Source: an uncultured bacterium
GTDB taxonomy: Bacteria; Armatimonadota; UBA5829
Direction of reading: 5' to 3'
Length of the DNA stretch: 15,363 nt
Assembly (NCBI GenBank): GCA_963775535.1
Contig: CAVZJH010000066.1
Span: forward strand, 1-15,363
In this document: positions 1 through 15,363 of the stretch, one piece after another
Position numbering within the stretch: the stretch's first letter is position 1
How the letters are laid out: each line of letters starts with the position of its first letter
Notes under the pieces: generated by a model
Seen by the model: only the letters and a program-made list of their open reading frames with translations
Databases searched by the model: none
Told to the model about the DNA's origin: nothing
Program-made: the position numbers and the translations under genes

Positions 1-96
1 GATCCACCTGCAGTGGCGGCTTCGGCTGCGTGCAACCGAAGCAACCTGGCTCTGATAAACGTCGGCCGTCAATGACCGTTTTCAGGAGGCTTTGTG

Positions 97-880
97 ATGA
101 GTTTTCATGACATTCTTCAATGGTGGAACCTGATCTACGTTGCTCCGCTGTTCGTCTCCGTCGTCTGGATCGTGGCGACCCTGTTTTCCGGGGTGCACGC
201 CGGGGGCGGCGGCCACTCCGTGTCCCATGGCGTCGACCACGCGGCGCACGGCATCGGACACGCCACGCACGATGTCGGCCACGCAGTGGGCCACGTCGTT
301 CACCACGGCGATGCCGGGGCCGATCACGATGCCGCCCACGCTCACGAAGCCGCGCCGCACGGCGCCCACGCTCACGGCGCGCACGCCGCCCACACCGATG
401 CCCATCAGGAAAGCTTTGGATCGCGCGTGCTTTCGGTGACTGGGAATCGGCCAGGTTCCGATCACGCTGATCTTCGGCATATTCATGCCGTTCTGGGGCG
501 CACTCGGAATGACCACAAACCAGTTCCTGGCCGGCATTTTGAAGTTTCCCCTCATCTACATCTGGCCATCGCTGGGAATCACGTTCGTCGTGAGCTGCGC
601 GGTTACCCGGTCACTGATCGCCGTGATTGCGCGATGCATGCCGAACACCGAGACTTACGGAGTTTCGCGAATGGAGCTTATCGGCTCGCTGGGACGCGCC
701 CTCTATCCCACTACCGAAAGCGCCGGCACAGTAGACATCAAGGACACGTACGGAACGCTCCACCGAGTGCAGGCGAAGACGGAGTCGGGGCAGGAATCGA
801 TACCGTCGGGCTCCGAGGTCATAGTTATCGATTTTGACGAGGAGGACAAACGCTTCGTAGTCAGAATAAGTAGTCTCTAA
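97..880 (+). CDS. NfeD/YqiJ-like inner-membrane protein with a histidine-rich low-complexity insert; the reading frame shifts +1 near 436-445
   Basis: AGGAGG at 84-89 sits 7 nt before ATG 97. Frame 1 (94-~438) encodes a TM helix (LIYVAPLFVSVVWIVATLF) followed by about 70 aa of His/Ala/Gly/Asp repeats (HSVSHGVDHAAHGIGHATHDVGHAVGHVVHH...). Frame 2 (440-880) encodes two further TM helices (LGIGQVPITLIFGIFMPFWGALG..., LIYIWPSLGITFVVSCAV) and a C-terminal beta-rich OB-like tail (SEVIVIDFDEEDKRFVVRI) typical of NfeD. Its position directly upstream of a flotillin gene matches the yqiJ-yqiK pairing. The frame-1 text after ~440 and the frame-2 text before 440 both look non-protein, so this is one gene with a single frameshift. 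Confidence 0.6.
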
Positions 881-910
881 CCACAAACAACAGGAAAGGG
901 GTTCTATCTC

Positions 911-2935
911 ATGGGAATTATTGTGTTAATGGGCCTGATCGGCCTTACGATGATCATCGGGCCATTCTTCTATCCGGTCACGACGATCAGCCGCGGCATA
1001 CTCCTCGGTTTTGGAGCGCTGCTGACGGTCGTTTCCATTGTTCTGACGCTGATCACCCAGTGGTACCAGCGAGCATCGGCTGAAGAAGCTATAGTCAGGA
1101 CGGGTATGGGCGGCAGCAAGGTGATCATCGACGGCGGCATAATGACGGTTCCGGTCGTCCACCGCATCACCCGCGTCTCACTCAAGGTTATTAAGCTCAC
1201 GTGCGTCCGTGAAGGGCCGGACGCTCTTATTACCAGGGATTACCTGCGCGCGGACGTTCACTCCGAGTTTTATATGAGAGTGGGCGCTACGCCGGAGCAG
1301 GTTCTGAACGCCGCTCGGTCCTTTGGCGAGGAATCAGGCACTGAGGAGAGGATCGATGCCAAGGTCGGCGAGAAGTTGATCTCGGCGCTGCGCTCAGTCG
1401 CAGCGAAACACGAACTGGCTGAGCTCCACTCCGACCGCGAGAGCTTTGCTATCGCCGTCCAGGAACTCGTCGCGAAGGAGATCGAGCCCAACGGTTTGAC
1501 GCTGGAGACGGTCACTATTTCCAGACTCGACCAGACCGACCCCGCGCACCTGAACGACAACAACGTCTTCGACGCGCAGGGAAAACGGAAGATCACCGAG
1601 ATCACCACCGCCGCACTCGTCGCACGCAACGAACTGGAGCGCACGGCCGAGCAGGCCACCACGCAGAAGAACGTATCGACCCGAAAGAGCGTTCTTACCC
1701 TGCAGCAAGACCAGGCTACGGCCGAAGCCGAACAGCAGATGCAGATCAACAAGGTCCAGGCCGAAAAGCAGCGCGAGGCCGACGTCTATCGCATCGAGCA
1801 GGAGCGGCAGACCCAGCAGGCGCAGATCGTGGCGGATCAGTCGGTGAGGCAGGCGGATATCGCCAAGGAGCAGACGATCCAGACCACCGAGGTCGACAAG
1901 GTCAAGATGGTCGAGGTTGCCACCCGGGACCAGCAGATCGCTATCACCCAGAAGGAAGCCGAGAGGGCAGATGCCGAACGCGCAAGATACGACGCCGAGG
2001 CCGCGCGCGAACAGGCCAACCAGCAGGTTAAGACCGTTGAGGTTGTGGCGGGGGCCGAGCGCGAAGCCAGGCAAAAGCTGATCGGCGCGGAGAACGAGGC
2101 GCAGCAGGCCCTGGTCCGAAAGCAGAAGGACGCAGACGCCATCGCCTACCAGAAGCAGAAGGAAGCGGAAGGCGAGTTCAACGCCGCGCAGAGCCGTGCA
2201 AAAGCCACCCTCACAATGGCGGACGCCGATTCGCAGGCTAAGATGCGACTGGCTGAAGGTGAAAGAGCCGTCCAGTTCGTTCCTGTCCAGGTAGAAGCCG
2301 AGCGGGTGGAAGTGAACCGCAAGCAGATGGAGGTAGACCGGGCTTCCGCCGAATACAGGCAGCAGTTCGAAAAATCCGCCATCGAGTTCGAGGTTGCCAA
2401 GCTCGAGGTCAATGCGAGAAAAGAGATCCAGATCGCAATGGCGAACGCGATCGGCAACTTCGTCCAGCAGGGCAGCTACACGGTGTACGGGACCCCGGAC
2501 ACAATGGCCGATATGCTCGAGAAACTGTCCAAGGGCCTTGGGGTTGGAGCGTTCATCGACGGTATGGGCAAGAGCATCCTCGGTGGCAACGGCGACCGCT
2601 CACCTGCCGAGACCGTCGGCGACCTCGCCGGCCTGGTCGGAGAGGCCATAAAGAAAGCAACCGGCAAGGACGTGAGCGTTGCTCCGGAGCTCGCCCAGAA
2701 GATCGCTTCCCTGGTCCTGGGCAATGAGCCCGACCAGAAGGCGTCTCGAGTCCGCTCCAAAAGTCGCCGAGGGGCTCCGCCCGGACGGCAGTATCAGAAA
2801 GACCGAGCGGAAACCGCAGGCTTAATTCTGCGTCTATTAGATGGGGGGGTGAGGGTCTTAGGACCCTCACCCCAGTGCTTTCTTGAGCGAGGTGACGCGC
2901 TGGTTCGCTATGCCGCGCGAATTGAGACTTGTTGA
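911..2935 (+). CDS. Flotillin-like SPFH/band-7 domain protein (YqiK-like) with a long Q/E/A-rich coiled-coil region; the true 3' end may be about 2824
   Basis: An RBS (aggaaagggg) lies about 10 nt upstream of ATG 911. The N-terminal TM helix is followed by the SPFH signature (GGSKVIIDGGIMTVPVVHRITRVSLKVIKLTCVREGPDALITRDYLRADVHSEFYMRV). About 350 aa of heptad-like AEQ/ERQ repeats follow. The last about 60 aa in this frame are Arg-rich junk. An alternative frame gives ...ESAPKVAEGLRPDGSIRKTERKPQA and stops at about 2824, just before the hairpin at 2846-2873, which suggests a frameshift in the tail near 2735-2750. Confidence 0.8.
   Translation: MGIIVLMGLIGLTMIIGPFFYPVTTISRGILLGFGALLTVVSIVLTLITQWYQRASAEEAIVRTGMGGSKVIIDGGIMTVPVVHRITRVSLKVIKLTCVREGPDALITRDYLRADVHSEFYMRVGATPEQVLNAARSFGEESGTEERIDAKVGEKLISALRSVAAKHELAELHSDRESFAIAVQELVAKEIEPNGLTLETVTISRLDQTDPAHLNDNNVFDAQGKRKITEITTAALVARNELERTAEQATTQKNVSTRKSVLTLQQDQATAEAEQQMQINKVQAEKQREADVYRIEQERQTQQAQIVADQSVRQADIAKEQTIQTTEVDKVKMVEVATRDQQIAITQKEAERADAERARYDAEAAREQANQQVKTVEVVAGAEREARQKLIGAENEAQQALVRKQKDADAIAYQKQKEAEGEFNAAQSRAKATLTMADADSQAKMRLAEGERAVQFVPVQVEAERVEVNRKQMEVDRASAEYRQQFEKSAIEFEVAKLEVNARKEIQIAMANAIGNFVQQGSYTVYGTPDTMADMLEKLSKGLGVGAFIDGMGKSILGGNGDRSPAETVGDLAGLVGEAIKKATGKDVSVAPELAQKIASLVLGNEPDQKASRVRSKSRRGAPPGRQYQKDRAETAGLILRLLDGGVRVLGPSPQCFLERGDALVRYAARIETC
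2846..2873. terminator. Perfect 12-bp GC-rich stem-loop (GGGGTGAGGGTC-TTAG-GACCCTCACCCC) between the convergent flotillin and pdhB genes; a likely bidirectional terminator or REP-like palindrome
   Basis: I read the palindrome directly from the sequence. It is followed on the plus strand by AGTGCTTTCTTG, which is T-rich, and it lies between two convergent gene ends. Confidence 0.4.
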
Positions 2936-3008: not shown

Positions 3009-4016
3009 CTATATCGACGCTGCTATGGCCCCCGCCTGCGCGCCCGTGAGCGCCTTCTTCACCGCTGTCAGGATCTTTGCCTCGTCCGGCAGCGCGGAGA
3101 GCTCCAGTTCCCGGGAATACGGCATCGGGTTGTCCGCGAGGGTGACTCTGTCGATCGGCGCGTCGAGGTAGTCGAATGCGTGGTGCTGGATTTGATCCAC
3201 GATCTGCGCCCCGACCCCGCACATGGGCCAATCCTCTTCTACTATGACAACGTGGTTGGTCTTCTTTACGGACCTGACCATCGTTGCCACGTCCATCGGG
3301 CGCAGGGTCCGCAGGTCCACTACCTCCGCATTGATCCCCTCGTAAGCCAGCTTGTCGGCGGCCTTCATGGCCACGCTGACCATTCTGAGATAGGCGATAA
3401 TCGTGACGTCTGTTCCCTGCCGCTTGATATCCGCCTTTCCCAGCGGGATCGTGTATTCCTCGTCGGGAACTTCGCCCTTCATCGAATAGAGCAGTTCGTG
3501 CTCGAGGAATATGACGGGGTTATTATCCCGGATGGCGCTCTTTAAGAGGCCCTTGGCATCATAGGGCGTGGCCGCGGCAGCCACTTTCAGGCCCGGAACG
3601 TGCACAAACCAAGACTCCAGGTTCTGCGAGTGCTGTGCTCCGAGCTGCATTCCGGCTCCCTCCAGAGCCCGAATCACCATGGGAACACTGAGCTGACCAC
3701 CGCTCATGTATCTGAGCTTTGCGGCGTGGTTTACGATCTGGTCCATCGCCAGCACCGCGAAGTTGATGGTCATCATCTCCACCACAGGCCTGAGCCCCAG
3801 CATCGCCGCACCCGTCCCGATCCCCGCGAGGACCAGCTCGGAAATAGGGCTGTCCCGCACGCGCGTCTCGCCGAACTCCTCGAGCAGCCGCTCGGTCACC
3901 CGGTAAGCTCCCTGGTACTGCGCCACTTCTTCGCCTATGAGAAAGACGTTCTCATCACGCCGCATCTCCTCGCGAAGGGCATGGTTAAGAGCCTGTCTGT
4001 AGTATATCGACGGCAT
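3009..4016 (-). CDS. pdhB: 2-oxoacid (pyruvate/acetoin) dehydrogenase E1 component beta subunit
   Basis: The 335-aa product has the transketolase-like pyrimidine-binding and C-terminal domains of E1-beta (LIGEEVAQYQGAYRVTERLLEEFGETRVRDSPISE..., PMCGVGAQIV). An AAGGAG RBS lies 8 nt upstream of the ATG on the minus strand. It sits immediately downstream of the E1-alpha gene. Confidence 0.85.
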   Translation of the reverse strand: MPSIYYRQALNHALREEMRRDENVFLIGEEVAQYQGAYRVTERLLEEFGETRVRDSPISELVLAGIGTGAAMLGLRPVVEMMTINFAVLAMDQIVNHAAKLRYMSGGQLSVPMVIRALEGAGMQLGAQHSQNLESWFVHVPGLKVAAAATPYDAKGLLKSAIRDNNPVIFLEHELLYSMKGEVPDEEYTIPLGKADIKRQGTDVTIIAYLRMVSVAMKAADKLAYEGINAEVVDLRTLRPMDVATMVRSVKKTNHVVIVEEDWPMCGVGAQIVDQIQHHAFDYLDAPIDRVTLADNPMPYSRELELSALPDEAKILTAVKKALTGAQAGAIAASI

Positions 4017-4033: not shown

Positions 4034-4198
4034 GAGTGGGGGGCTTTGCCCCCTAACCCCCACCAGAGACCGCCGTCTCTGGACTCTGCTGGGGCCAAGG
4101 GCCCCAGACCCCTGGCTCGCTTCGCGTCTATGCTCACCCTAACGGTGAGCATAGACGCGAAGCGCAATATGGGGGTCCAGGAGGCAAAGCCCCCACTT
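4034..4198. repeat. 165-bp nested palindromic element in the pdhA-pdhB intercistronic space
   Basis: An outer imperfect stem pairs GTGGGGGGCTTTGCC (4034-4050) with GGCAAAGCCCCCAC (4183-4196). Three internal hairpins lie inside it. The first is CCAGAGAC-cgcc-GTCTCTGG (4063-4082). The second is CTGGGGCC-aag-GGCCCCAG (4089-4107). The third is a perfect 20-bp stem, GCTTCGCGTCTATGCTCACC-ctaac-GGTGAGCATAGACGCGAAGC (4119-4163). Confidence 0.7.
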
Positions 4199-5154
4199 CA
4201 CGCGTATACGTCCTGCCACAGCGCTTCGGGCGGTGGCAGGGGTGATTTCTCAGCAAACTCAACAGCTTCTTCTATCTCGCTGTCCACATCCGCCTGTATC
4301 TTTTCGATGTCCTCCGGCGTCAGTATTCCCTCATCGAGGAGGACGGCGCCGAAGGTGACTATCGGATCGCGCGTGCGCCACTCCTCGATCTCGTTCCTCG
4401 ACCGATATGTGCCGGGGTCGGACATCGAGTGGCCGCGAAACCGATAGGTTACAGCCTCCACGAACATCGGGCGCTTTTCTTCCCGCACGTGCTTCATGGC
4501 TTTCTGGGCGACCTCGCAGACGGCCAGCACGTCCATTCCGTCCACGCTCTCCACTTCCATGGCGTAACACTGAGCGCGGCGGTGCAGGTTCGGCACAGCG
4601 GATGCGCGCTCCACCGCCGTGCCCATGCCGTATAGATTGTTCTCGCAGACGAACAGAATTGGCAGGTTCCACAGCGAGGCAACGTTGAGGGTTTCGTGGA
4701 ATGCGCCTTCGTTGACGGCGCCATCTCCAAAGAAGCTCAGGCATATCTGGTCTCCACCGCGATAGTTGATGGCGTAGCCGATCCCTGCCGCAAGGGGTAA
4801 TCCCCCGCCGACTATTGCAGTGCCGCCGAGGAATCGCCTGTCCACGTCGAAAAGGTGCATGGAACCGCCCTTGCCGCCCGAGACCCCCGTCGCCTTGCCG
4901 AACAACTCCGCCATGACGCGGCTGGGGCTCGCGCACCTGGCGAGCGCGTGGCCGTGGTCGCGGTAGGCGCCAATCACGTAGTCGTCCGGCCTGAGCGGCC
5001 ACGTGAATCCGCTGGCAACCGCCTCCTGGCCGATGTAGAGGTGCAGGAACCCGCGAACCTTCCCCTGTTCATACATTTCCCCCGCGGCTTCCTCGAACTT
5101 TCTGATCATCGCCATCTCGCGGTAGACGCCTATCTTGTCCTGCTTACTGAGCAT
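4198..5154 (-). CDS. pdhA: 2-oxoacid (pyruvate/acetoin) dehydrogenase E1 component alpha subunit (TPP-dependent)
   Basis: The 318-aa product has the TPP-binding motif region (GDGAVNEGAFHETLNVASLWNLPILFVCENNLYGMGT) and the typical E1-alpha N-terminus (LYIGQEAVASG). It is followed by the beta subunit. Confidence 0.85.
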   Translation of the reverse strand: MLSKQDKIGVYREMAMIRKFEEAAGEMYEQGKVRGFLHLYIGQEAVASGFTWPLRPDDYVIGAYRDHGHALARCASPSRVMAELFGKATGVSGGKGGSMHLFDVDRRFLGGTAIVGGGLPLAAGIGYAINYRGGDQICLSFFGDGAVNEGAFHETLNVASLWNLPILFVCENNLYGMGTAVERASAVPNLHRRAQCYAMEVESVDGMDVLAVCEVAQKAMKHVREEKRPMFVEAVTYRFRGHSMSDPGTYRSRNEIEEWRTRDPIVTFGAVLLDEGILTPEDIEKIQADVDSEIEEAVEFAEKSPLPPPEALWQDVYA

Positions 5155-5180: not shown

Positions 5181-6022
5181 TCTGGTTAGTCGCGTGGTAT
5201 GAGCTTCTGACCAGCGGTCCTGATTCAACATACCCAAATCCCATATCAAGCGCAATGCGTCTGAGTTCGGAGAATTTCGTCGGGGGTGTAGTATCTGGAG
5301 ATGGGGACGTGGTTTTTGGAGGGGGCAAGGTACTGGCCGATGGTGAGGATGTCGCAGTGGGCTTCGCGCAGATCGCGAATGGCTTCCAGCAGTTCGTCCC
5401 AAGTCTCGCCGACGCCGACCATCACGCCCGACTTGGTGCGGATCGAGGAATCTATGCCTTTTGCCTTCTTGAGCAGCGCGATGGACCTGGTGTAGAGAGC
5501 CTGGGGGCGAACGAAGGGGGTAGCAGCGTTCGACGGTTTCGATGTTGTGGTTAAGGATCTCGGGCTTCGCTTCTACAACAAGCCCCAGAATCGCTCGTCA
5601 CCCTGGAAATCTGGAATAAGCACCTCGACTGAACACTCCTCGACACCCTGGTGTATCAACCCTATGGTCTGGGCAAAAACGTGCGCACCCCCGTCGATTT
5701 GATCGTCCCGGGTAACGCTGGTAACCACCGCATGACGGAGCTGCAAATAAGCTGCGGCCTGGGCCACGCGACGAGGTTCGTCCTCGTCCACAGGCCCCGG
5801 CGCGCCGTGGTTCACCGCGCAGAAGCGGCAGTTGCGCGTGCAGGTGTTTCCGAGAATCATAAAGGCAGCAGTGCGAGAGTGCCAGCACTCGCCGATGTTA
5901 GGGCAGTTTGCGCTCTGGCAGACGGTGTGCAGGTGCGCGGACTCAACGAGCCTTTTCACGCCTTCGTAATTCTCTCCCGCGGGAGCTTTGGCTTTTATCC
6001 AGTCAGGGCGCTGCAATCTCAC
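5181..6022 (-). CDS. lipA: Lipoyl synthase LipA (radical SAM); the coding sequence is interrupted by three single-nucleotide frameshifts
   Basis: The N-terminal segment (GTG 6022 down to 5573) carries both LipA cysteine motifs, CxxxCPNxxEC and CTRxCxFC ([16 protein letters not shown]..., [14 protein letters not shown]). The remainder of LipA can be read on the minus strand in two other frames: ...[24 protein letters not shown], then [80 protein letters not shown], then [34 protein letters not shown] and a stop at 5181. The frame shifts fall near 5575, in the G5/C5 run near 5516-5520, and at the A3 run near 5270. Confidence 0.8.
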
Positions 6023-6163: not shown

Positions 6164-6192
6164 TTGCTAATGCGCAGCAGCCTTGGTAAAAT
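6164..6192 (+). promoter_or_regulatory. Sigma-70-like promoter candidate (TTGCTA -17- TAAAAT) upstream of the deaminase operon
   Basis: Read directly from the sequence: -35 TTGCTA at 6164-6169, a 17-nt spacer, and -10 TAAAAT at 6187-6192. It lies about 29 nt upstream of GTG 6221, in the divergent lipA/deaminase intergenic region. Confidence 0.35.
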
Positions 6193-6220: not shown

Positions 6221-6670
6221 GTGTCTGACCGACCTTCGTTTGATAGAGTGTATATGGATGTCGTGGATATCATCGCCAGGCGGTCGACGTGCCTGCGAAA
6301 ACACGTTGGGGCAGTGATCACCATCGACCACCGCATACTTTCGCACGGCTACAACGGCGTCCCCAGCGGCCAGGAGCACTGCTGCGATACGAAGCAATGC
6401 CTCAAGGACAGGGCGGGCACCGAAGAATACAAAGTTTGCGTGCATGCCGAGCAAAATGCCATCTGCCAGTGTGCCAAGCGCGGCCTCGCTCTGGAGGGCG
6501 CGACGGTGTATGTGAACGCCGACATCTGCATCACCTGCGCTAAGCTGATGATCTCCTCGGGGATTGCCCGGTGCGTGGTCAAGCGCGACCACAAGGGGAC
6601 CTCGGACGGAGCCGGACTTCTAATAAAATGCGGCGTGGAAGTGGTGGAGTGGCCGGATGGCGCATTCTGA
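6221..6670 (+). CDS. dCMP deaminase family (ComEB/Dcd-type) zinc-dependent deaminase
   Basis: The 149-aa product has the diagnostic motifs ARRSTCLRKHVGAVI, GYNGVPSG..HC, HAEQNAI (the zinc-binding H-x-E) and ICITCAKLMI (PCxxC). The start is GTG. Confidence 0.75.
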   Translation: MSDRPSFDRVYMDVVDIIARRSTCLRKHVGAVITIDHRILSHGYNGVPSGQEHCCDTKQCLKDRAGTEEYKVCVHAEQNAICQCAKRGLALEGATVYVNADICITCAKLMISSGIARCVVKRDHKGTSDGAGLLIKCGVEVVEWPDGAF

Positions 6671-7343
6671 CCCGACCCTGAAAGCGGTAGTATTCGATAT
6701 AGGGGCTACGCTGGTTACGGGACCGCCCGTTGCTCCCAACAAGGTCATTGCCGCGCTCATAGACGGTGCCAGCGCCGCTGAGGTTTCATCGGTGATCATG
6801 ACAACCGAACTGCTCTCCGCCGAGCACGCTTGCGCCGTGCTGCAGGCGAGGTTCGGTTCTCTGAGCGAGACGGCGGTTTCCGGAATCACCCGGCTTTGGA
6901 GATCTCAGATAACGGCGGCGGTGGGGATCGAAGGCGCGTGCGAGACCGCGATGTCGATCAAGCGGCGAGGGCTGAAGCTGGGGCTGTTATCGGACATCTG
7001 GAACCCGTATTACGCAAGTGTTCAGAGGGCGCTGCCGGAGGTCGTGAGGGCCGCGGACGCTGTTGTGCTGAGCTGCAGGACCGGGGCGCGCAAACCGGAG
7101 CGCGACAACTTCCAGGCAGTATTGGACGAGCTGGGATTGGCGCCGGGCGAGGTGGTAATGGTGGGGGATACCTATGCCCACGATATTCTTCCCGCTATCG
7201 AGATGGGAATGCCGACGGTGTGGGTGATGGCGAGGCCGGAGCGCGAGGCGGATTCGATTGTGCGCATCCTGAACGGGGAGAATCCGGCGCCGACGGTGAC
7301 GGTTTCCCACATAAGCCAGGTCGCGTGTCTGAAGATTTTCTAA
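6657..7343 (+). CDS. HAD-superfamily hydrolase; motif I is D-I-G-A-T rather than DxDxT
   Basis: Motif I is VVFDIGATLV. Motif II is LLSDIWNP. The motif III lysine is in ARKPERDNF. Motif IV is MVGDTYAHDI. The gene overlaps the deaminase by 14 nt, indicating translational coupling. Confidence 0.7.
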   Translation: MAHSDPTLKAVVFDIGATLVTGPPVAPNKVIAALIDGASAAEVSSVIMTTELLSAEHACAVLQARFGSLSETAVSGITRLWRSQITAAVGIEGACETAMSIKRRGLKLGLLSDIWNPYYASVQRALPEVVRAADAVVLSCRTGARKPERDNFQAVLDELGLAPGEVVMVGDTYAHDILPAIEMGMPTVWVMARPEREADSIVRILNGENPAPTVTVSHISQVACLKIF

Positions 7344-7479: not shown

Positions 7480-8094
7480 ATGGAAATACAGCGAGTGGAA
7501 CGTCATAGTGTGGATGAACTGGTGGCCAACCTGCGCAGGGTGGGCATGTTCACCGACCCCGAGGCGCGCGTCTACAAGAACTCGGTAATCGAGCTCACCT
7601 CGTTTCACACAAATGAGATCGCGCCGGCCCAGCGATACGTGCTGGCGAGTGAGATCACAAAGGTGCGCGACTTGAAGTGGGCGCTGGCGGAGCACGCTGT
7701 GGACTTGTTCAGGCTCGATGGCTACGCGACTATCTGGCTGGAGGGCTACGACGATCCGATAGACGTTCTGCCGCCCGTTATCGAACAGTCCGCGGAGGCC
7801 GACGGCAGCGTAGTGAAGATTTTGAACGACGGTATGCACCGGGTCTACCTCGCGAGGATGGAGCGATCCCCGATCCAGGTGGTCTACATCCGCAATGTGC
7901 CGGAGCAGTATCCGTATTACGCGTTCCCGCTCGTGAACGGCTGGAACGATGTTGCGATCATGCAGGACCTGCCCGAGGGCTACATAAAGAAATGGCATCG
8001 CATCAAGAACTACAAGAGCCTTTACAGAGACTTCAACACCGGCTTCCAGAATGTCGGCGGGCCCAGAGGGCACTTCTCTAATGCCGGAAAGTAA
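7480..8094 (+). CDS. ParB/sulfiredoxin-fold (ParB-like nuclease domain) protein
   Basis: The 204-aa product contains VLPPVIEQSAEADGSVVKILNDGMHRVYLARMERSPIQVV. This matches the ParB/Srx core pattern: a Pi.v segment, then l.DGhHR..Aa, then an i.v segment. GAGAGG lies about 9 nt upstream of ATG 7480. The stop codon overlaps the start of the next gene. Confidence 0.5.
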   Translation: MEIQRVERHSVDELVANLRRVGMFTDPEARVYKNSVIELTSFHTNEIAPAQRYVLASEITKVRDLKWALAEHAVDLFRLDGYATIWLEGYDDPIDVLPPVIEQSAEADGSVVKILNDGMHRVYLARMERSPIQVVYIRNVPEQYPYYAFPLVNGWNDVAIMQDLPEGYIKKWHRIKNYKSLYRDFNTGFQNVGGPRGHFSNAGK

Positions 8095-9522
8095 TGATCT
8101 CGAGTTCATTGCGCTTCATTTCCCGGACAAGCTGAGGATCGTTAACCCCCGCGCTCGCCTCGGAGTTATTACGCTCTGGAGCAGGATCGAGTTTGTAGAG
8201 AGCAAGCTCGCTCAGATGGGGGTCGACCTGAACCCTGCAACTTCTAAAATAGCGGTCATCGGCAACCTCTACGGCAACGGCATTCCGCACTTGCTTCGCA
8301 ACCTGCTCTACAACCCGCAGATTCGCGACCTCGTGATATGCGGGGCGAACAAGTCCGGCTCCGCCGAGGAATTGATCGCGTTTTTCGAATCCGGGACCGA
8401 GCGCGCCACGAGCCTTGGAGAAAGCGTCACGCGAATAAAGGGGACAAGGCGGATCATCGACGACGCGCTGACCCCGGAGCATTTCTCGACGAGGCCGCGC
8501 ATCACGAGGTTCGGCGAACTCAGGGACTGCGGGGGGACCTGCGGGCTTACATTGCGGCGTGCTGCCCGGCCCAAGTGAGCGCGGAGCGTGTTAAGATCGA
8601 TCTGCCGGAGGTAAAGGTCACCCACTTCCCGAGCGAGCCGCGCAACCATAACGTGGTAACGGACACCCCGCTGGCGGCCTGGCGCGAGCTTATATTCCGC
8701 CTGGTGCGCTTCGGGCACCTGGTGAAGCTGCGAAAGGGCGACCGGCAGGAGCTGCCCAACGTGCGCGTGGTGGTGCGCGAGCCCGGGGAAGATGATACCG
8801 AGGAACTGGCGAAGTTCAACTTTTCCATTGACGAGCTCAGGCAGTATCAGCGCGACATGCTCCTCGGCCCGCTGCCGGAGGACCACTGCTACACCTACGG
8901 CAACCGGATTAGGGAATACTTCGGCTTCGATTCGCTTGAAAAGTTCGCCCAAAGGCTAAAAGCGAACCCGCAGGATCGGGACTGCTACCTCGCTCTGTGG
9001 GACAGCCATCACGACATCGACGCGGATGACGCTCCGTGCCTGGTCTCGCTGTTTTTCCGGGTGTTCGATGCCAGGCTGACCCTCACCGCGACCTACCGCA
9101 CCCACAACGCGCTCGATGCGTGGCTTAAGAATGTCTACGGGCTGATGAAGGCGCAGGAGATCGTGGCCGAAAAGGCGGGGCTGCCGGTGGGGCCGCTCAC
9201 GGTGATCAGCCACTCGATCAGCATTGACCCGTCCAAGTATGACGCCGCGCTGCGCGTGGCGAATGCCAGGGGGTTCTCGCTCGAGATCGACCCCAGCGGC
9301 CAGTTTATGGTGAGCGTGGAGGATGCGGAGATAGTGGTGCGGCACATGAACGATGACGGCTTCCTGCTCCACGAATACCGCTCCAAAAAGGCCGAGCGCA
9401 TCCAGCACGAGCTCAACCGCGACTGCGCGATCTCGGACATCAACCACGCGATGTATATAGGCCGGCAGCTCGCGAAGGCCGAGATTTGCTTGAGGAGCGG
9501 GGAAGAGTTCGAGGAAGGGTAG
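8081..9522 (+). CDS. Fusion protein: N-terminal MtrA-like domain (tetrahydromethanopterin S-methyltransferase subunit A family) joined to a C-terminal divergent thymidylate-synthase-fold domain; the frame shifts within the G6 run at 8542-8547
   Basis: The N-terminal segment is LGVITLWS...IAVIGNLYGNGIPHLLRNLLYNPQIRDLVICGANKSGS. This aligns by eye to the MtrA core (lGVvTLgS ... GIEKVvAN.ISNPNIRflIlCGSEVqGH). The C-terminus has TS-fold motifs: LKANPQDRDCYLALWD matches TS l.NP.SRR....AWN. DAPCLVSLFFRV matches the PCH nucleophile region with the Cys retained. YRTHNALDA matches QRSxD. SHSISI replaces GDAHIY. Frame 2 (8081-8578) and frame 1 (about 8540-9522) join at CTGCGGGGGGACC. An alternative start is ATG 8051. 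Confidence 0.6.
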
Positions 9523-12960: not shown

Positions 12961-13790
12961 TTCTCATTGACAAGGTTAAGCAGTTCGGCCTCGGAGGGCT
13001 GCCAGGAGCTCGGCAGGACGTCGCGCAAGCCCGTGACCACAGCCTGCTTGTAAGGCCGGTCGTTTTCCAGCGCGTCTTTGAACAGACCGAATTCCTTCTA
13101 CCGAGTTCGACCGCGCTAATTCTCTCACACAGCTTTCCGCGTAGCCGCCTTTCTTGATCCCTTCCAGCAGTAAGGAACAGCGGCATCACCAAATGCCTGA
13201 TGTATCTCTGAGGCAATCGGGAACATCGGGAAGAAGAACCCATCCAACCTATCCGAAGTATCCGTTGAAGCGAGCAGAGGCCCTAGTTTTTGCAGGTGGC
13301 TGGTTTCGCTGCCTGATGAATGGCCCCCACCGCCTCGTCTCTGACCGATGGAACCTCCGCCAACTGCAACAAGAGATCGTGCGCCCGGTCAGTCTTAAGC
13401 ATCTCGGTCGATTAAACCAGCGGCAGAAGCGCTTCTCTCTGAATAAACGTTCGAATGTGCGGAACTGCTGCCCACACTAAGTCCTGTATCAGTTTCGGCA
13501 CCGCGGGCTGCTCCTTCCATACAACCGCGGCTGCGGATATTCGAGAAGTGAACTGCCTTCAGCGGCATCAAGACGTCCAGGGAGTGGACTGCCGCGCCTG
13601 CCGTTTCCGCGGAATGGAGTGAGAAATGGAATGATCGAGTCTGCCAACCGCCTCGCAGCGGGCTGGAACAAATCCGCGTGTCCGCTCAAATAATAGGCCA
13701 AGTCGTCAGTCAGGTCCCTCTTTGGCCAGCATTAACGCGGGATCTCGCGCCTTATGACATCATCCCCGTAGTAGTCCAGCACATTAAGGC
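12961..13790 (-). pseudogene. Decayed paralogue of the HEAT-like gene at 14529-15363, carrying multiple frameshifts and stops
   Basis: Nucleotide-level similarity to 14551-15363 runs across about 0.8 kb, with long identical blocks such as TTCATTGACAA.GTTAAGCAG.TCGGCCTCGGA.GGCTGCCAGGAG.TCGGCAGGAC and CAGCCTGCTTGTAAGGCCGGTCGTTTTCCAG. There are scattered indels. Only short broken ORFs remain (12947-13243 and 13489-13701). Confidence 0.6.
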
Positions 13791-14501
13791 ACATATTTAT
13801 ACACAAACTCGTCGTAAGATCCTTGCCAGGCGGGATAACCAAAGTGATGATGCAGGCATTTGAACAAGACTGGCAGCACCTGTTCATCGGGCTTCGCAAG
13901 CAGCGAAGGCAAGTCAATATACCTAACATGACGCCCACGTTATCCGGAGGGTGCGATATCTGATCCTCCAACCATCCGCCGCGCTGTTCGGGCGAGAACG
14001 GCTTCACTATCAATGGAGTCCAGTCCGAATAGGAGAAGATCACCCTGGCCAGCTTGTCGAACCATTTGCCATGGCCTTTGTAGCGCACCATGTAAGTGCC
14101 GGGTTTGCTGAACCGGTAGGTACCCAGATGCAGAGGCAATCTTCCCTGCAATGAGGACTGCGGCGTGCCCAACTCGTGGGACCCATCCCCCGTCATTATC
14201 CGAGCGTGGGGGGTATCGCCAGCATGCCCGAGTCGCGGAAGCGGCTTGCCGTTCAGCGTCACTTCAAAATCGTTGGGGCCGAAGAACCACGGTTCACTTG
14301 AATACGGATAGCTAAGCTGAAGTCATACTGCTGTGATCCGCGGCGAACTGAACGTGGACCCACACGGGGCATGTTCGTATACACGGGATCATCGAAAGAC
14401 AGGGTCGCGTGCGGCATGGCATCGTCCGCAAGAGCGGCTCTACCTGGCGCCAGCATCACCAGCAGGACAAAACATATCCTAAGAAACGATAGGTGCGACA
14501 T
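13732..14501 (-). CDS. Secreted hypothetical protein; the frame shifts near 14275-14290 and the 3' end is uncertain
   Basis: The signal peptide is MSHLSFLRICFVLLVMLAPGRAALA (ORF 14259-14501). It continues in another frame as ...SYPYSSEPWFFGPNDFEVTLNGKPLPRLGHAGD...GTYMVRYKGHGKWFDKLARVIFSYSDWTPLIVKPF. A single-nucleotide indel near CTTAGC joins the two frames. Confidence 0.45.
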
Positions 14502-14528: not shown

Positions 14529-15363
14529 TCAACGAACCAATGCGCCTGCCAACCTTTCATTGACAATGTTAAGCAGCTCGGCCTCGGAAGGCTGCCAGGA
14601 GTTCGGCAGGACATCTCGCAAGCCCTTGACCACAGCCTGCTTGTAAGGCCGGTCGTTTTCCAGTGCGTCTTTGAACAGCCCGAAGCCTTCTACCGAGTTC
14701 GACCGCGCTAATTCCACCACACAGCTTTCGGCATCGCCGCCTTTCCCGGATCCCTTCCAGCAGGTAAGGAACAGCGGCGTCACCAAATGCACGATGTATC
14801 TCGCCGGCAATCTCGGAGGAGTCGGAGGTTTATCCAACTTATCCCCCAACGCGAGCAGTGGGCCTAACTTCGGCAGGTCCGCTGGATTGCTTGGCCTCAC
14901 AGACACACGACACCGCCAACTCTCTGACCGATGGAACCTCCGCCAACTGCAACAAAAGATCGTGCGCCCGGTCTGAGTTGAGCTGAGTCATAAACAGAAC
15001 CAGCGGCAAAAGCGCTTCGCTCTGAGTAAACGTTCGAATGTGCGGAACTGCTGCCCACACTGCGTCCTCTATCATCTTCCGCACCGCGGGCTGCTCCTTC
15101 CACGTCTGAAACCGCCCCGGAACTTCCGAGAAGTGACCTGCGTTCAGCCCCATCAGGATGTCCAGGGAGCGAACTGCCTCGCCTGCCGTTTTCGCGGAAT
15201 TGGAGTCGAGAAATGGAATGATCGACTCTACCAACTGCCTCACAACGGGCTGGAACAAATCCGCGTGTTGGCTCACGTAGTGGGCCACGGCGTCAGTAGG
15301 TCCTTCTTTGGCCAGCACGCGCGGGATCTCACGCTTTATCACATCATCCCCGGCAACCAGCGC
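14529..15363 (-). CDS. Alpha-helical (HEAT-like) hypothetical protein, 5'-partial because it runs off the window end; the frame shifts near 14905
   Basis: Two overlapping minus-strand ORFs are present (14839-15342 and 14529-14906). Their protein-like portions join as ...LLLQLAEVPSVRE, then ELARSNSVEGFGLFKDALENDRPYKQAVVKGLRDVLPNSWQPSEAELLNIVNERLAGALVR. The helix-rich repeats show no catalytic motif. Confidence 0.4.

Follow-up and report, generated by a model that had tools for sequence, protein, structure and literature searches.

What does the interrupted gene at positions 8081-9522 of contig CAVZJH010000066.1 encode? The question arises from a stretch of 15,363 nucleotides (the window) from an uncultured member of the Armatimonadota (assembly GCA_963775535.1), in which a reading made from the sequence alone had noticed an MtrA-like domain fused to a divergent thymidylate synthase (TS) domain. 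According to our analysis, the gene encodes a conserved three-domain enzyme of about 480 amino acids (aa) that is split by a one-base homopolymer error. The enzyme would modify deoxyuridine monophosphate (dUMP) at C5, and would probably make deoxythymidine monophosphate (dTMP) with altered cofactor handling and without a corrinoid. We give this reading as a whole a probability of roughly 55%.

The first step concerns the reading frame. The sequence-only reading took 8081-9522 as one open reading frame (ORF), which it is not: read in one frame (frame A), the gene runs for 165 codons and ends with a TGA stop at 8576-8578. The remainder of the fusion protein is encoded in another frame (frame B), open from 8338 to 9522, and the two frames join on the plus strand at a run of six G at 8531-8536. 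The earlier suspicion of a problem at a G run was justified, but the break lies at this run and not at 8542-8547. Insertion of a single G at 8531-8536 yields a fusion protein of 480 aa, with the following elements.

8081-8530, plus strand: MtrA-fold N-terminal domain, aa 1-150, in frame A (profile alignment); Ser94 (8360-8362) is at the position of the MtrA cobalt-ligand His.
8531-8536, plus strand: G6 homopolymer and frame break; one extra G restores 480 aa (translation, homologue alignment).
8537-8578, plus strand: out-of-frame tail of frame A, ending with the TGA at 8576-8578; the same bases encode part of the linker in the repaired frame B (translation).
8632-9255, plus strand: archaeal-type ThyA-like domain, aa 185-392, in frame B (PF00303, TIGR03283, Foldseek, hhalign to E. 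coli ThyA).
9037-9039, 9097-9099 and 9106-9108, plus strand: Cys320, Arg340 and Asn343 (D169 position) of the ThyA-like domain, in frame B.
9130-9132 and within 9220-9228, plus strand: Asn351 (N177 position), and Ser381 with Asp383 (H207 and Y209 positions), in frame B.
9289-9513, plus strand: PterinBD-DUF4346 domain, aa 404-478, in frame B (PF14251); the stop codon follows at 9520-9522.

The repaired protein aligns with more than 100 intact single-ORF homologues of 470-500 aa, mainly from Armatimonadota metagenome-assembled genomes, at 97-100% coverage and 60-75% identity. The break falls within the interdomain linker, the most variable stretch of the protein. A fusion copy in a long-read metagenome (contig L092) has the same kind of break. 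In the window itself, the lipA gene for lipoyl synthase (5182-6016, minus strand), at a distance of 2.5 kb, contains an in-frame stop, an out-of-frame stretch and another frame change, some of them beside G5 runs, although its similarity at the protein level stays high. The adjoining genes for the alpha (4198-5154) and beta (3009-4016) subunits of pyruvate dehydrogenase E1 are both intact, which speaks for assembly errors (homopolymer indels) as the cause of the lipA breaks. In view of the one-G repair, the position in the linker, and the breaks in lipA and L092, the frameshift in the fusion gene is most probably a homopolymer sequencing error.

The alternative is that in the source organism the gene is really a pseudogene or really split, with halves that are either non-functional or made as two polypeptides. 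The stop at 8576-8578 is, after all, present in the sequence as given, and it is overlapped by a frame-B GTG (8575-8577) in the tetranucleotide GTGA at 8575-8578. If the frameshift were real, stop-start coupling at this site could in principle translate the TS-DUF4346 part. Moreover, in at least one relative, on the short metagenomic contig L093, the MtrA-like domain is encoded by a separate, divergent gene. However, a break in a G6 run that is mended by a single G, at 2.5 kb from a lipA gene with several breaks and with a counterpart in L092, looks like an artefact. Neither half of the fusion contains further stops, and all family-invariant residues are present in both. We therefore consider a pseudogene or a split gene improbable. 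The preferred reading, an intact gene with a sequencing error, also fits the relatives, in which the MtrA-like and TS-DUF4346 halves form one gene, as the fusion claim demands. Short TS-DUF4346 proteins were considered as natural two-domain forms and dismissed, since the one in L092 is a frameshifted fusion and the one in L093 has its N-terminal domain encoded divergently. The L093 layout (MtrA-like gene at 13-378, minus strand; TS-DUF4346 gene at 561-1493, plus strand; a HAD gene beside them) could mean that the fusion is naturally split in this relative or that the contig was misassembled.

Two further possibilities for the 5' half were rejected. A programmed frameshift is at odds with the unbroken ORFs of the homologues, the location in a variable linker, the G6 run, which is not a seven-base slippery site, and the similar breaks in other genes of the window. 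An alternative start at ATG 8051 does not fit the homologues, which start at MPESD/MQEND, equivalent to 8081 here.

What are the domains of the repaired protein? Pfam and NCBIfam distinguish three, namely an MtrA-like, a ThyA-like and a PterinBD-DUF4346 domain. The first two had been recognized earlier, but the third had been folded into the TS domain. It is recognized by its own profile (PF14251, E 2e-18, 67.4 bits against a gathering cutoff of 29.6; aa 404-478, within the last approximately 85 aa). The central domain passes PF00303 marginally (E 2.9e-6, 27.0 bits against a cutoff of 24.3), and matches the methanogen-type TS profile TIGR03283 with E 6.5e-34 and 117.2 bits, under the cutoff of 174.55. 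The MtrA signal at the N-terminus is weak and stays under the thresholds of the MtrA families (PF04208, E 0.12, 12.4 bits against 25; TIGR01111, 11.9 bits against 249; NF002126, E 7e-5, 22.4 bits against 161). A profile of the whole family, compared with the Protein Data Bank (PDB), matches both ThyA (4dq1, E 1e-5) and MtrA (5laa, E 1e-3). The N-terminal domain adopts the Rossmann-like fold of MtrA, and the central domain retrieves TS-fold proteins exclusively, as the sequence-only reading had anticipated for the two halves. In a Foldseek search of the PDB with a full-length model, the top 50 matches all have the TS fold, with E values down to 6e-13. The best of them, 9iqu (TM score 0.77, normalised to the target) and 9iqc, are TS-fold proteins of the flavin-dependent deoxycytidine monophosphate (dCMP) hydroxylase type, and the 9iqc entry contains FAD. 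For the DUF4346 domain, a sequence search of the PDB identified no solved structure; binding of a pterin is predicted from the family name. Five relatives of 786-840 aa (P0028, P0051, P0112, P0241 and P0363) are nearly double in length. In the Pfam scan, P0028, P0051 and P0112 have two DUF4346 stretches each, and two of these three have two TS stretches, as if the TS-DUF4346 module had been duplicated within the protein.

For the active site, we aligned 107 family representatives from 50% clustering and, separately, 116 close relatives of the window gene. The references were ThyA from E. coli, the standalone methanogen-type TS from phage PhiF1, the Yuavirus dUMP hydroxymethylase, and RB69 gp48, a flavin-dependent 5-hydroxy-dCMP synthase. 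The catalytic Cys, which had been reported as kept, is indeed there: Cys320 aligns with C146 of E. coli ThyA and is present in 107 of 107 representatives and in 116 of 116 close relatives. Pro319-Cys320 and Arg340 (R166) are found in 100% of the representatives, Asn351 (N177) in 99% (106 of 107), Tyr273-Gly274 (Tyr94-Gly95) in 99%, and Arg300 (R126) in 91%. All of these residues are conserved in 100% of the close relatives. According to a rule cited in PMC13326640, the exchange N177D makes dCMP the preferred substrate. The Asn at this position in the window protein, established by the suggested alignment with ThyA and hydroxymethylase references, thus speaks for uracil rather than cytosine.

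The other motifs separate the family into two types. Approximately 40% of the representatives (type I) keep Arg127, Asp169 (RS[HN]D) and His207/Tyr209 (SxSAHIY), in a pattern that is also that of ThyA, methanogen-type TS and dUMP hydroxymethylase. They score 164-190 bits on TIGR03283, and one member exceeds the cutoff. The remaining representatives (type II), among them the window gene and all 116 close relatives, score 103-120 bits. They have RTHN (D169N) and SHSISID (H207 replaced by Ser, Thr or Gly; Y209 by Asp or a variable residue) in place of the RSxD and GDAHIY motifs, a divergence that had been noticed correctly, and most have also lost Arg127. Asn343 (D169N) is invariant in type II, whereas ThyA, methanogen-type TS, dUMP hydroxymethylase and type I have Asp. 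The type II combination of residues matches none of the compared references, since RB69 gp48 shares only D169N (RSQN) and combines it with N177D and with a retained RR and His207. Type II is therefore a clade without the cofactor- and sugar-binding residues that the characterised TS-superfamily references in our alignment keep. The diverged motifs, judged by conservation, define the clade and represent a remodelling of the pocket for cofactor and sugar that would leave the machinery for activation of a uracil nucleotide intact. Two broader readings of D169N, as a mark of the entire family or of users of tetrahydromethanopterin, were dropped because type I and methanogen-type TS keep the Asp.

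Among the families, methanogen-type TS (TIGR03283, for example ORF59 of Methanobacterium virus PhiF1) matches the central domain best. The two share a short TS fold of about 200 aa, the PCL nucleophile motif, YTYG, Arg166 and Asn177. The standalone PhiF1 enzyme keeps RR, RSxD and SAHIY, as type I does. In contrast, the window protein has Asn for D169, Ser381 and Asp383 for H207 and Y209, Asp for R127, and two extra domains. With E. coli ThyA it has in common the TS fold, Cys146, Arg166, Asn177, Tyr94 and Arg126, and Arg21 of ThyA aligns with Arg222. The differences are the replacement of D169, H207, Y209, R127 and H147, and the absence of the folate-clamping insert and of the C-terminal tail.

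The exchange at D169 raises the possibility that a flavin takes the place of folate in the TS-like pocket. The enzyme could then be a reductive methylase like ThyX or TrmFO, in which the pterin may give the methylene group to the flavin and the flavin the hydride, or it could be a hydroxylase like AfhB and RB69 gp48. D169N is invariant in type II and also found in RB69 gp48, and the best Foldseek matches, with the FAD in 9iqc, are of this kind. In four Desulfobacca-like loci (L004 and L094-L096), genes for riboflavin synthase (Lum_binding) and RibBA are located approximately 4-5 kb downstream of the fusion gene and its ParB-CE neighbour (introduced below), together with MazG and CvpA, although this may be a coincidence. 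The flavin-dependent 5-hydroxy-dCMP synthases (AfhB of phage HY126, 9iqu; RB69 gp48) share D169N and a compact TS fold with the window protein, but they are single-domain, oxygen-requiring phage proteins. They have N177D, indicative of cytosine, and keep R126/R127 and H207, which is the opposite of the type II pattern with its Asn177. In addition, type II has retained the pterin-associated DUF4346 domain, and the high TM score to 9iqu may just reflect the similarity of two short TS folds. The type II hosts, judged by their names, appear to be mostly anaerobes (sulfate reducers, syntrophs, digester genomes), which disfavours an oxygen-dependent hydroxylation. On balance, we regard a flavin enzyme as rather unlikely, and prefer a pterin-dependent modification of dUMP.

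Does the N-terminal domain bring a corrinoid to this reaction? In MtrA, the conserved elements of the cobalamin site are His84, Glu54 and the meander GAIPF[YF]xEN (PMC4915002). The loss of the corrinoid-ligand His, claimed earlier, is confirmed by the alignment, in which Ser94 of the window protein is at the position of His84 and Tyr64 at the position of Glu54. Of the 107 representatives, 103 have Ser, Thr or Ala in place of His84. Across the family, Glu54 is replaced by Tyr or Phe, and the meander is absent. The window protein also lacks the membrane anchor of MtrA, the corrinoid subunit of methyl-tetrahydromethanopterin:coenzyme M methyltransferase (5LAA, 5L8X). Type I members match the MtrA models strongly (NF002126, E 6e-27; TIGR01111, E 4e-17), and their His is likewise gone. 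The homology to MtrA is thus solid, and the loss of the hallmarks makes corrinoid binding in the MtrA mode unlikely.

The suggestion of an unusual one-carbon donor, in which the MtrA-like domain would hold a corrinoid and relay a methyl group to the pyrimidine site, accordingly finds little backing. The fold of the domain and its homology to a cobalamin-binding protein are real, and some corrinoid proteins, such as the corrinoid iron-sulfur protein CFeSP, bind their cofactor without a His ligand. However, the three most conserved elements of the MtrA cobalamin site are missing, and the same His-less domain occurs in type I, where it accompanies a canonical TS site of the methylene-pterin type. 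Methyl-Co(III) is also not known to serve as an electrophile towards the C5 enolate when a pyrimidine is activated by Cys. Corrinoid binding was therefore given up as the leading idea, and we consider such a relay very unlikely. Another role is hinted at by two other protein families. In NF002128, an MtrA-like segment is directly followed by DUF4346, and in TIGR00284, a family similar to dihydropteroate synthases, the C-terminal end is DUF4346. These proteins have the same accessory parts as the fusion, without a TS domain between them, and our searches identified no characterised function for the accessory domains. Because NF002128 pairs both halves and TIGR00284 carries DUF4346, we read the MtrA-like and DUF4346 domains as accessory parts that recur together on pterin-dependent enzymes, and the TS domain of the fusion would have been inserted between them.

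The genomic neighbourhood, which the sequence-only reading had not considered as a unit, offers a further clue to the function. The fusion gene is the last of four co-oriented genes, preceded by those for a dCMP deaminase, a HAD-family phosphatase and a ParB-CE protein. The upstream part of this cassette is composed as follows.

6164-6192, plus strand: promoter-like site shortly before the cassette, TTGCTA, 17 nt, TG-TAAAAT (consensus scan; weak, 3 sites against 1.4 expected).
6221-6670, plus strand: dCMP deaminase of the ComEB type, presumed supplier of dUMP (PF00383, E 1.6e-18; TIGR02571, E 1e-27, under cutoff).
6657-7343, plus strand: HAD-family phosphatase (PF00702, PF13419, PF13242), weakly similar to YjjG and PynA, which are pyrimidine 5'-nucleotidases.
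7480-8094, plus strand: ParB-CE protein, ParB/Srx-like (PF24392, E 3.6e-61).

The start of the HAD gene overlaps the end of the deaminase gene by 14 nt, and the ParB-CE stop overlaps the start of the fusion gene by the same length. Among 85 related loci, the fusion gene adjoins the deaminase gene in 23, is linked to the HAD gene in 22, and, where it is of type II, adjoins the ParB-CE gene in 28, the latter in at least five phyla and one viral contig. Every Armatimonadota locus recovered has all four genes. Of the three Bacillota loci, two have the complete set and one is without the deaminase. The deaminase gene also adjoins the fusion gene in Abditibacteriota, in Desulfonema and in L098, an IMG/VR viral contig of 287 kb, and is within 1.5 kb of it in a Nanobdellota archaeon. 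In Desulfonema, a Desulfobacterales genome and L098, the order is HAD, ParB-CE, deaminase and fusion, and the L098 fusion, of type II, is 31% identical to the window protein. Elsewhere the surroundings are housekeeping or DNA-metabolism genes, such as those for DnaB and MazG (L004) or topoisomerase I and DprA (L009).

The ParB-CE protein has approximately 204 aa, a ParB/Srx-type DGMHR motif that is invariant across phyla, and conserved C-terminal motifs (PYYA.P, KK..R, LYR.F, NVG..R). With 70-92% identity among Armatimonadota it is more conserved than the fusion protein. No match was detected in the PDB, NCBIfam and PHROG, and no characterised relative was found. No ParB-CE gene lies near the fusion gene in the two type I loci examined. 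An obligately adjacent partner of the fusion it is not, because 57 of the 85 loci are without it within at most 8 kb on each side. The lineages of these 57 loci nevertheless have ParB-CE, and in Desulfobacca-like genomes it directly follows a fusion gene.

A cassette of this composition could also make a modified pyrimidine deoxynucleotide instead of dTMP. In this case, dUMP would come from the deaminase, the type II enzyme would install another group at C5 (for example hydroxymethyl), ParB-CE would phosphorylate the product, and the HAD phosphatase would remove a competing or toxic nucleotide, in the manner of thymine-replacing phages. The four genes stay linked despite a reshuffled order, even where the fusion is only 31% identical and encoded on a viral contig, and the active site differs from every dTMP-making reference compared. 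Where phages make modified bases, a TS homologue comes together with a dedicated kinase for deoxynucleoside monophosphates, and the ParB/Srx fold includes small-molecule kinases, although for ParB-CE this activity is only putative. In one study, a TS homologue and a kinase were co-expressed in an assay (PMC13326640). Type II fusions are found in phage-like contigs, one with a sheath protein and DUF2793 (L008), and another with DUF4942 and ParB_N-MT-A70 DNA methyltransferases and a PRTase (L097). Furthermore, residue 317, at the L143 position, is Asp in the Armatimonadota clade, and hydroxymethylases typically have an acidic residue there (PMC13326640). However, this residue is not conserved across type II, and in the set of 107 it is most often Ser or Gly, so that an acidic residue here was rejected as a hydroxymethylase marker.

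The comparison with a verified hydroxymethylase does not favour this function either. The Yuavirus dUMP hydroxymethylase of Pseudomonas phage Lydia, a TS homologue that acts on dUMP in a pathway with SPO1-type logic, is approximately 31% identical to the window protein over aa 236-391, and its gene is flanked by those for a 5-hydroxymethyldeoxyuridine DNA kinase and a phosphohydrolase-like protein. It keeps D169, H207 and Y209, which type II has lost, and it has no MtrA-like domain, DUF4346 domain or ParB-CE partner. Glycosyltransferase or other downstream modification genes are not consistently found nearby in the loci. In addition, the Armatimonadota genes are chromosomal and share 60-75% identity across the homologues found, as housekeeping genes tend to do. 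Synthesis of a modified nucleotide is therefore a possibility to be taken seriously, but a doubtful one.

How, then, might the enzyme work? In our preferred reading, the deaminase would make dUMP, as its annotation and linkage suggest, and the ThyA-like domain would bind it. By homology to ThyA, Arg340, Arg300 and Arg222 would hold the phosphate, Asn351 would read the uracil edge, the conserved Cys320 would attack C6, and Tyr273 would act as the base. A one-carbon unit would then be transferred onto C5, most probably to yield dTMP. The MtrA-fold and PterinBD-DUF4346 domains, without a corrinoid, may bind a pterin carrier and present it to the minimal TS core of 200 aa, which is devoid of the folate-clamping elements of bacterial ThyA. 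In ThyA, Asp169 grips the pterin ring, and His207 and Tyr209 hold the 3'-OH. With D169N, H207S, Y209D and the loss of R127, the cofactor step is unlikely to take place exactly as in ThyA. In type II, this step, including activation of the one-carbon unit and supply of the hydride, may depend on the tightly linked ParB-CE protein. We consider dTMP the most probable product because type I grades into methanogen-type TS, because the gene behaves like a housekeeping gene, and because dCMP deaminase is the usual partner of a TS.

A number of observations weigh against this reading. Chiericatti and Santi (1998) reportedly found that the L. casei enzyme loses dTMP synthesis when D221, the equivalent of D169, is changed to Asn, which together with the invariant Asn343 argues against canonical methylene-folate chemistry. 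D169N has been described as diagnostic of flavin-dependent 5-hydroxy-dCMP synthases, and the only published clade with this exchange uses flavin (PMC13326640). The full-length model has its best structural match in the flavin-dependent hydroxylase 9iqu. It is also of moderate quality (predicted local distance difference test score, pLDDT, 74; predicted TM score, pTM, 0.46), which makes its domain arrangement tentative. The biochemistry of archaeal or methanogen-type ThyA is stated in the literature to be essentially unexplored. Finally, a set of a deaminase, a TS homologue, a kinase-like protein and a phosphatase also fits the phage pathways for modified bases. The reported effect of the Asp to Asn exchange and the flavin use of the sole published D169N clade are the reasons why we leave substantial weight on the modified-nucleotide and flavin alternatives.

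Two further regions of the window may be affected by indels. A flotillin/Band-7 ORF (911-2935) has an odd low-complexity tail after a G7 run at 2843-2849, which may be another homopolymer frameshift. On the minus strand, abutting or overlapping ORFs at 13732-14262, 14259-14501, 14529-14906 and 14839-15342, with one weak HEAT-repeat match, could be one or two indel-fragmented genes, or truly coupled small genes.

The fusion is widespread. A search of 1.84 billion cluster representatives at 50% identity returned 1,905 clusters at E<1e-3, of which 279 reach E<1e-30, and the three-domain layout of approximately 470-500 aa holds down to 28% identity. Named members belong to Armatimonadota, Abditibacteriota, Bacillota, Desulfobacterota, Planctomycetota, Nitrospirota, KSB1 and, as an archaeon, Nanobdellota. 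Cultured carriers include Desulfonema magnum, Desulfofundulus thermobenzoicus, Desulfovirgula thermocuniculi and Desulfobacca acetoxidans, and among the complete genomes with a type II gene are those of Desulfonema magnum 4be13 (NZ_CP061800.1) and Desulfobacca acetoxidans DSM 11109, as well as OW818698.1 and OY969108.1. In the databases, family members are labelled 'thymidylate synthase' or 'DUF4346 domain-containing protein', and our literature searches identified no paper on the three-domain family, on DUF4346/PterinBD or on ParB-CE. With thousands of copies in databases, the fusion is an uncharacterised variant within the TS superfamily and not a new kind of system. The sequence-only reading was thus right about its two domains and their motifs. 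It did not see the third domain or the four-gene cassette, nor that the divergence is the mark of a clade in a large, already annotated family.

Thymidylate synthesis is essential and a drug target, and ThyA and ThyX are, to our knowledge, the only solutions to this task that have been worked out mechanistically. Tentatively, and at longer odds than dTMP synthesis with altered cofactor handling, type II together with ParB-CE might be a third mechanistic route to C5-alkylated deoxyuridylate. It would combine the ThyA fold and Cys catalysis with a flavin or ParB-CE-dependent relay, and would dispense with the Asp-mediated activation of methylene folate. Such a route might be the sole source of thymidylate in many anaerobes, or provide a non-canonical replacement of thymine in cellular or jumbo-phage DNA. 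The function of type II would validate or correct thousands of annotations, and would assign roles to DUF4346, to ParB-CE and to an MtrA fold without cobalamin. A cofactor chemistry that is new for the TS scaffold, or a modified base not yet known, could also come to light.

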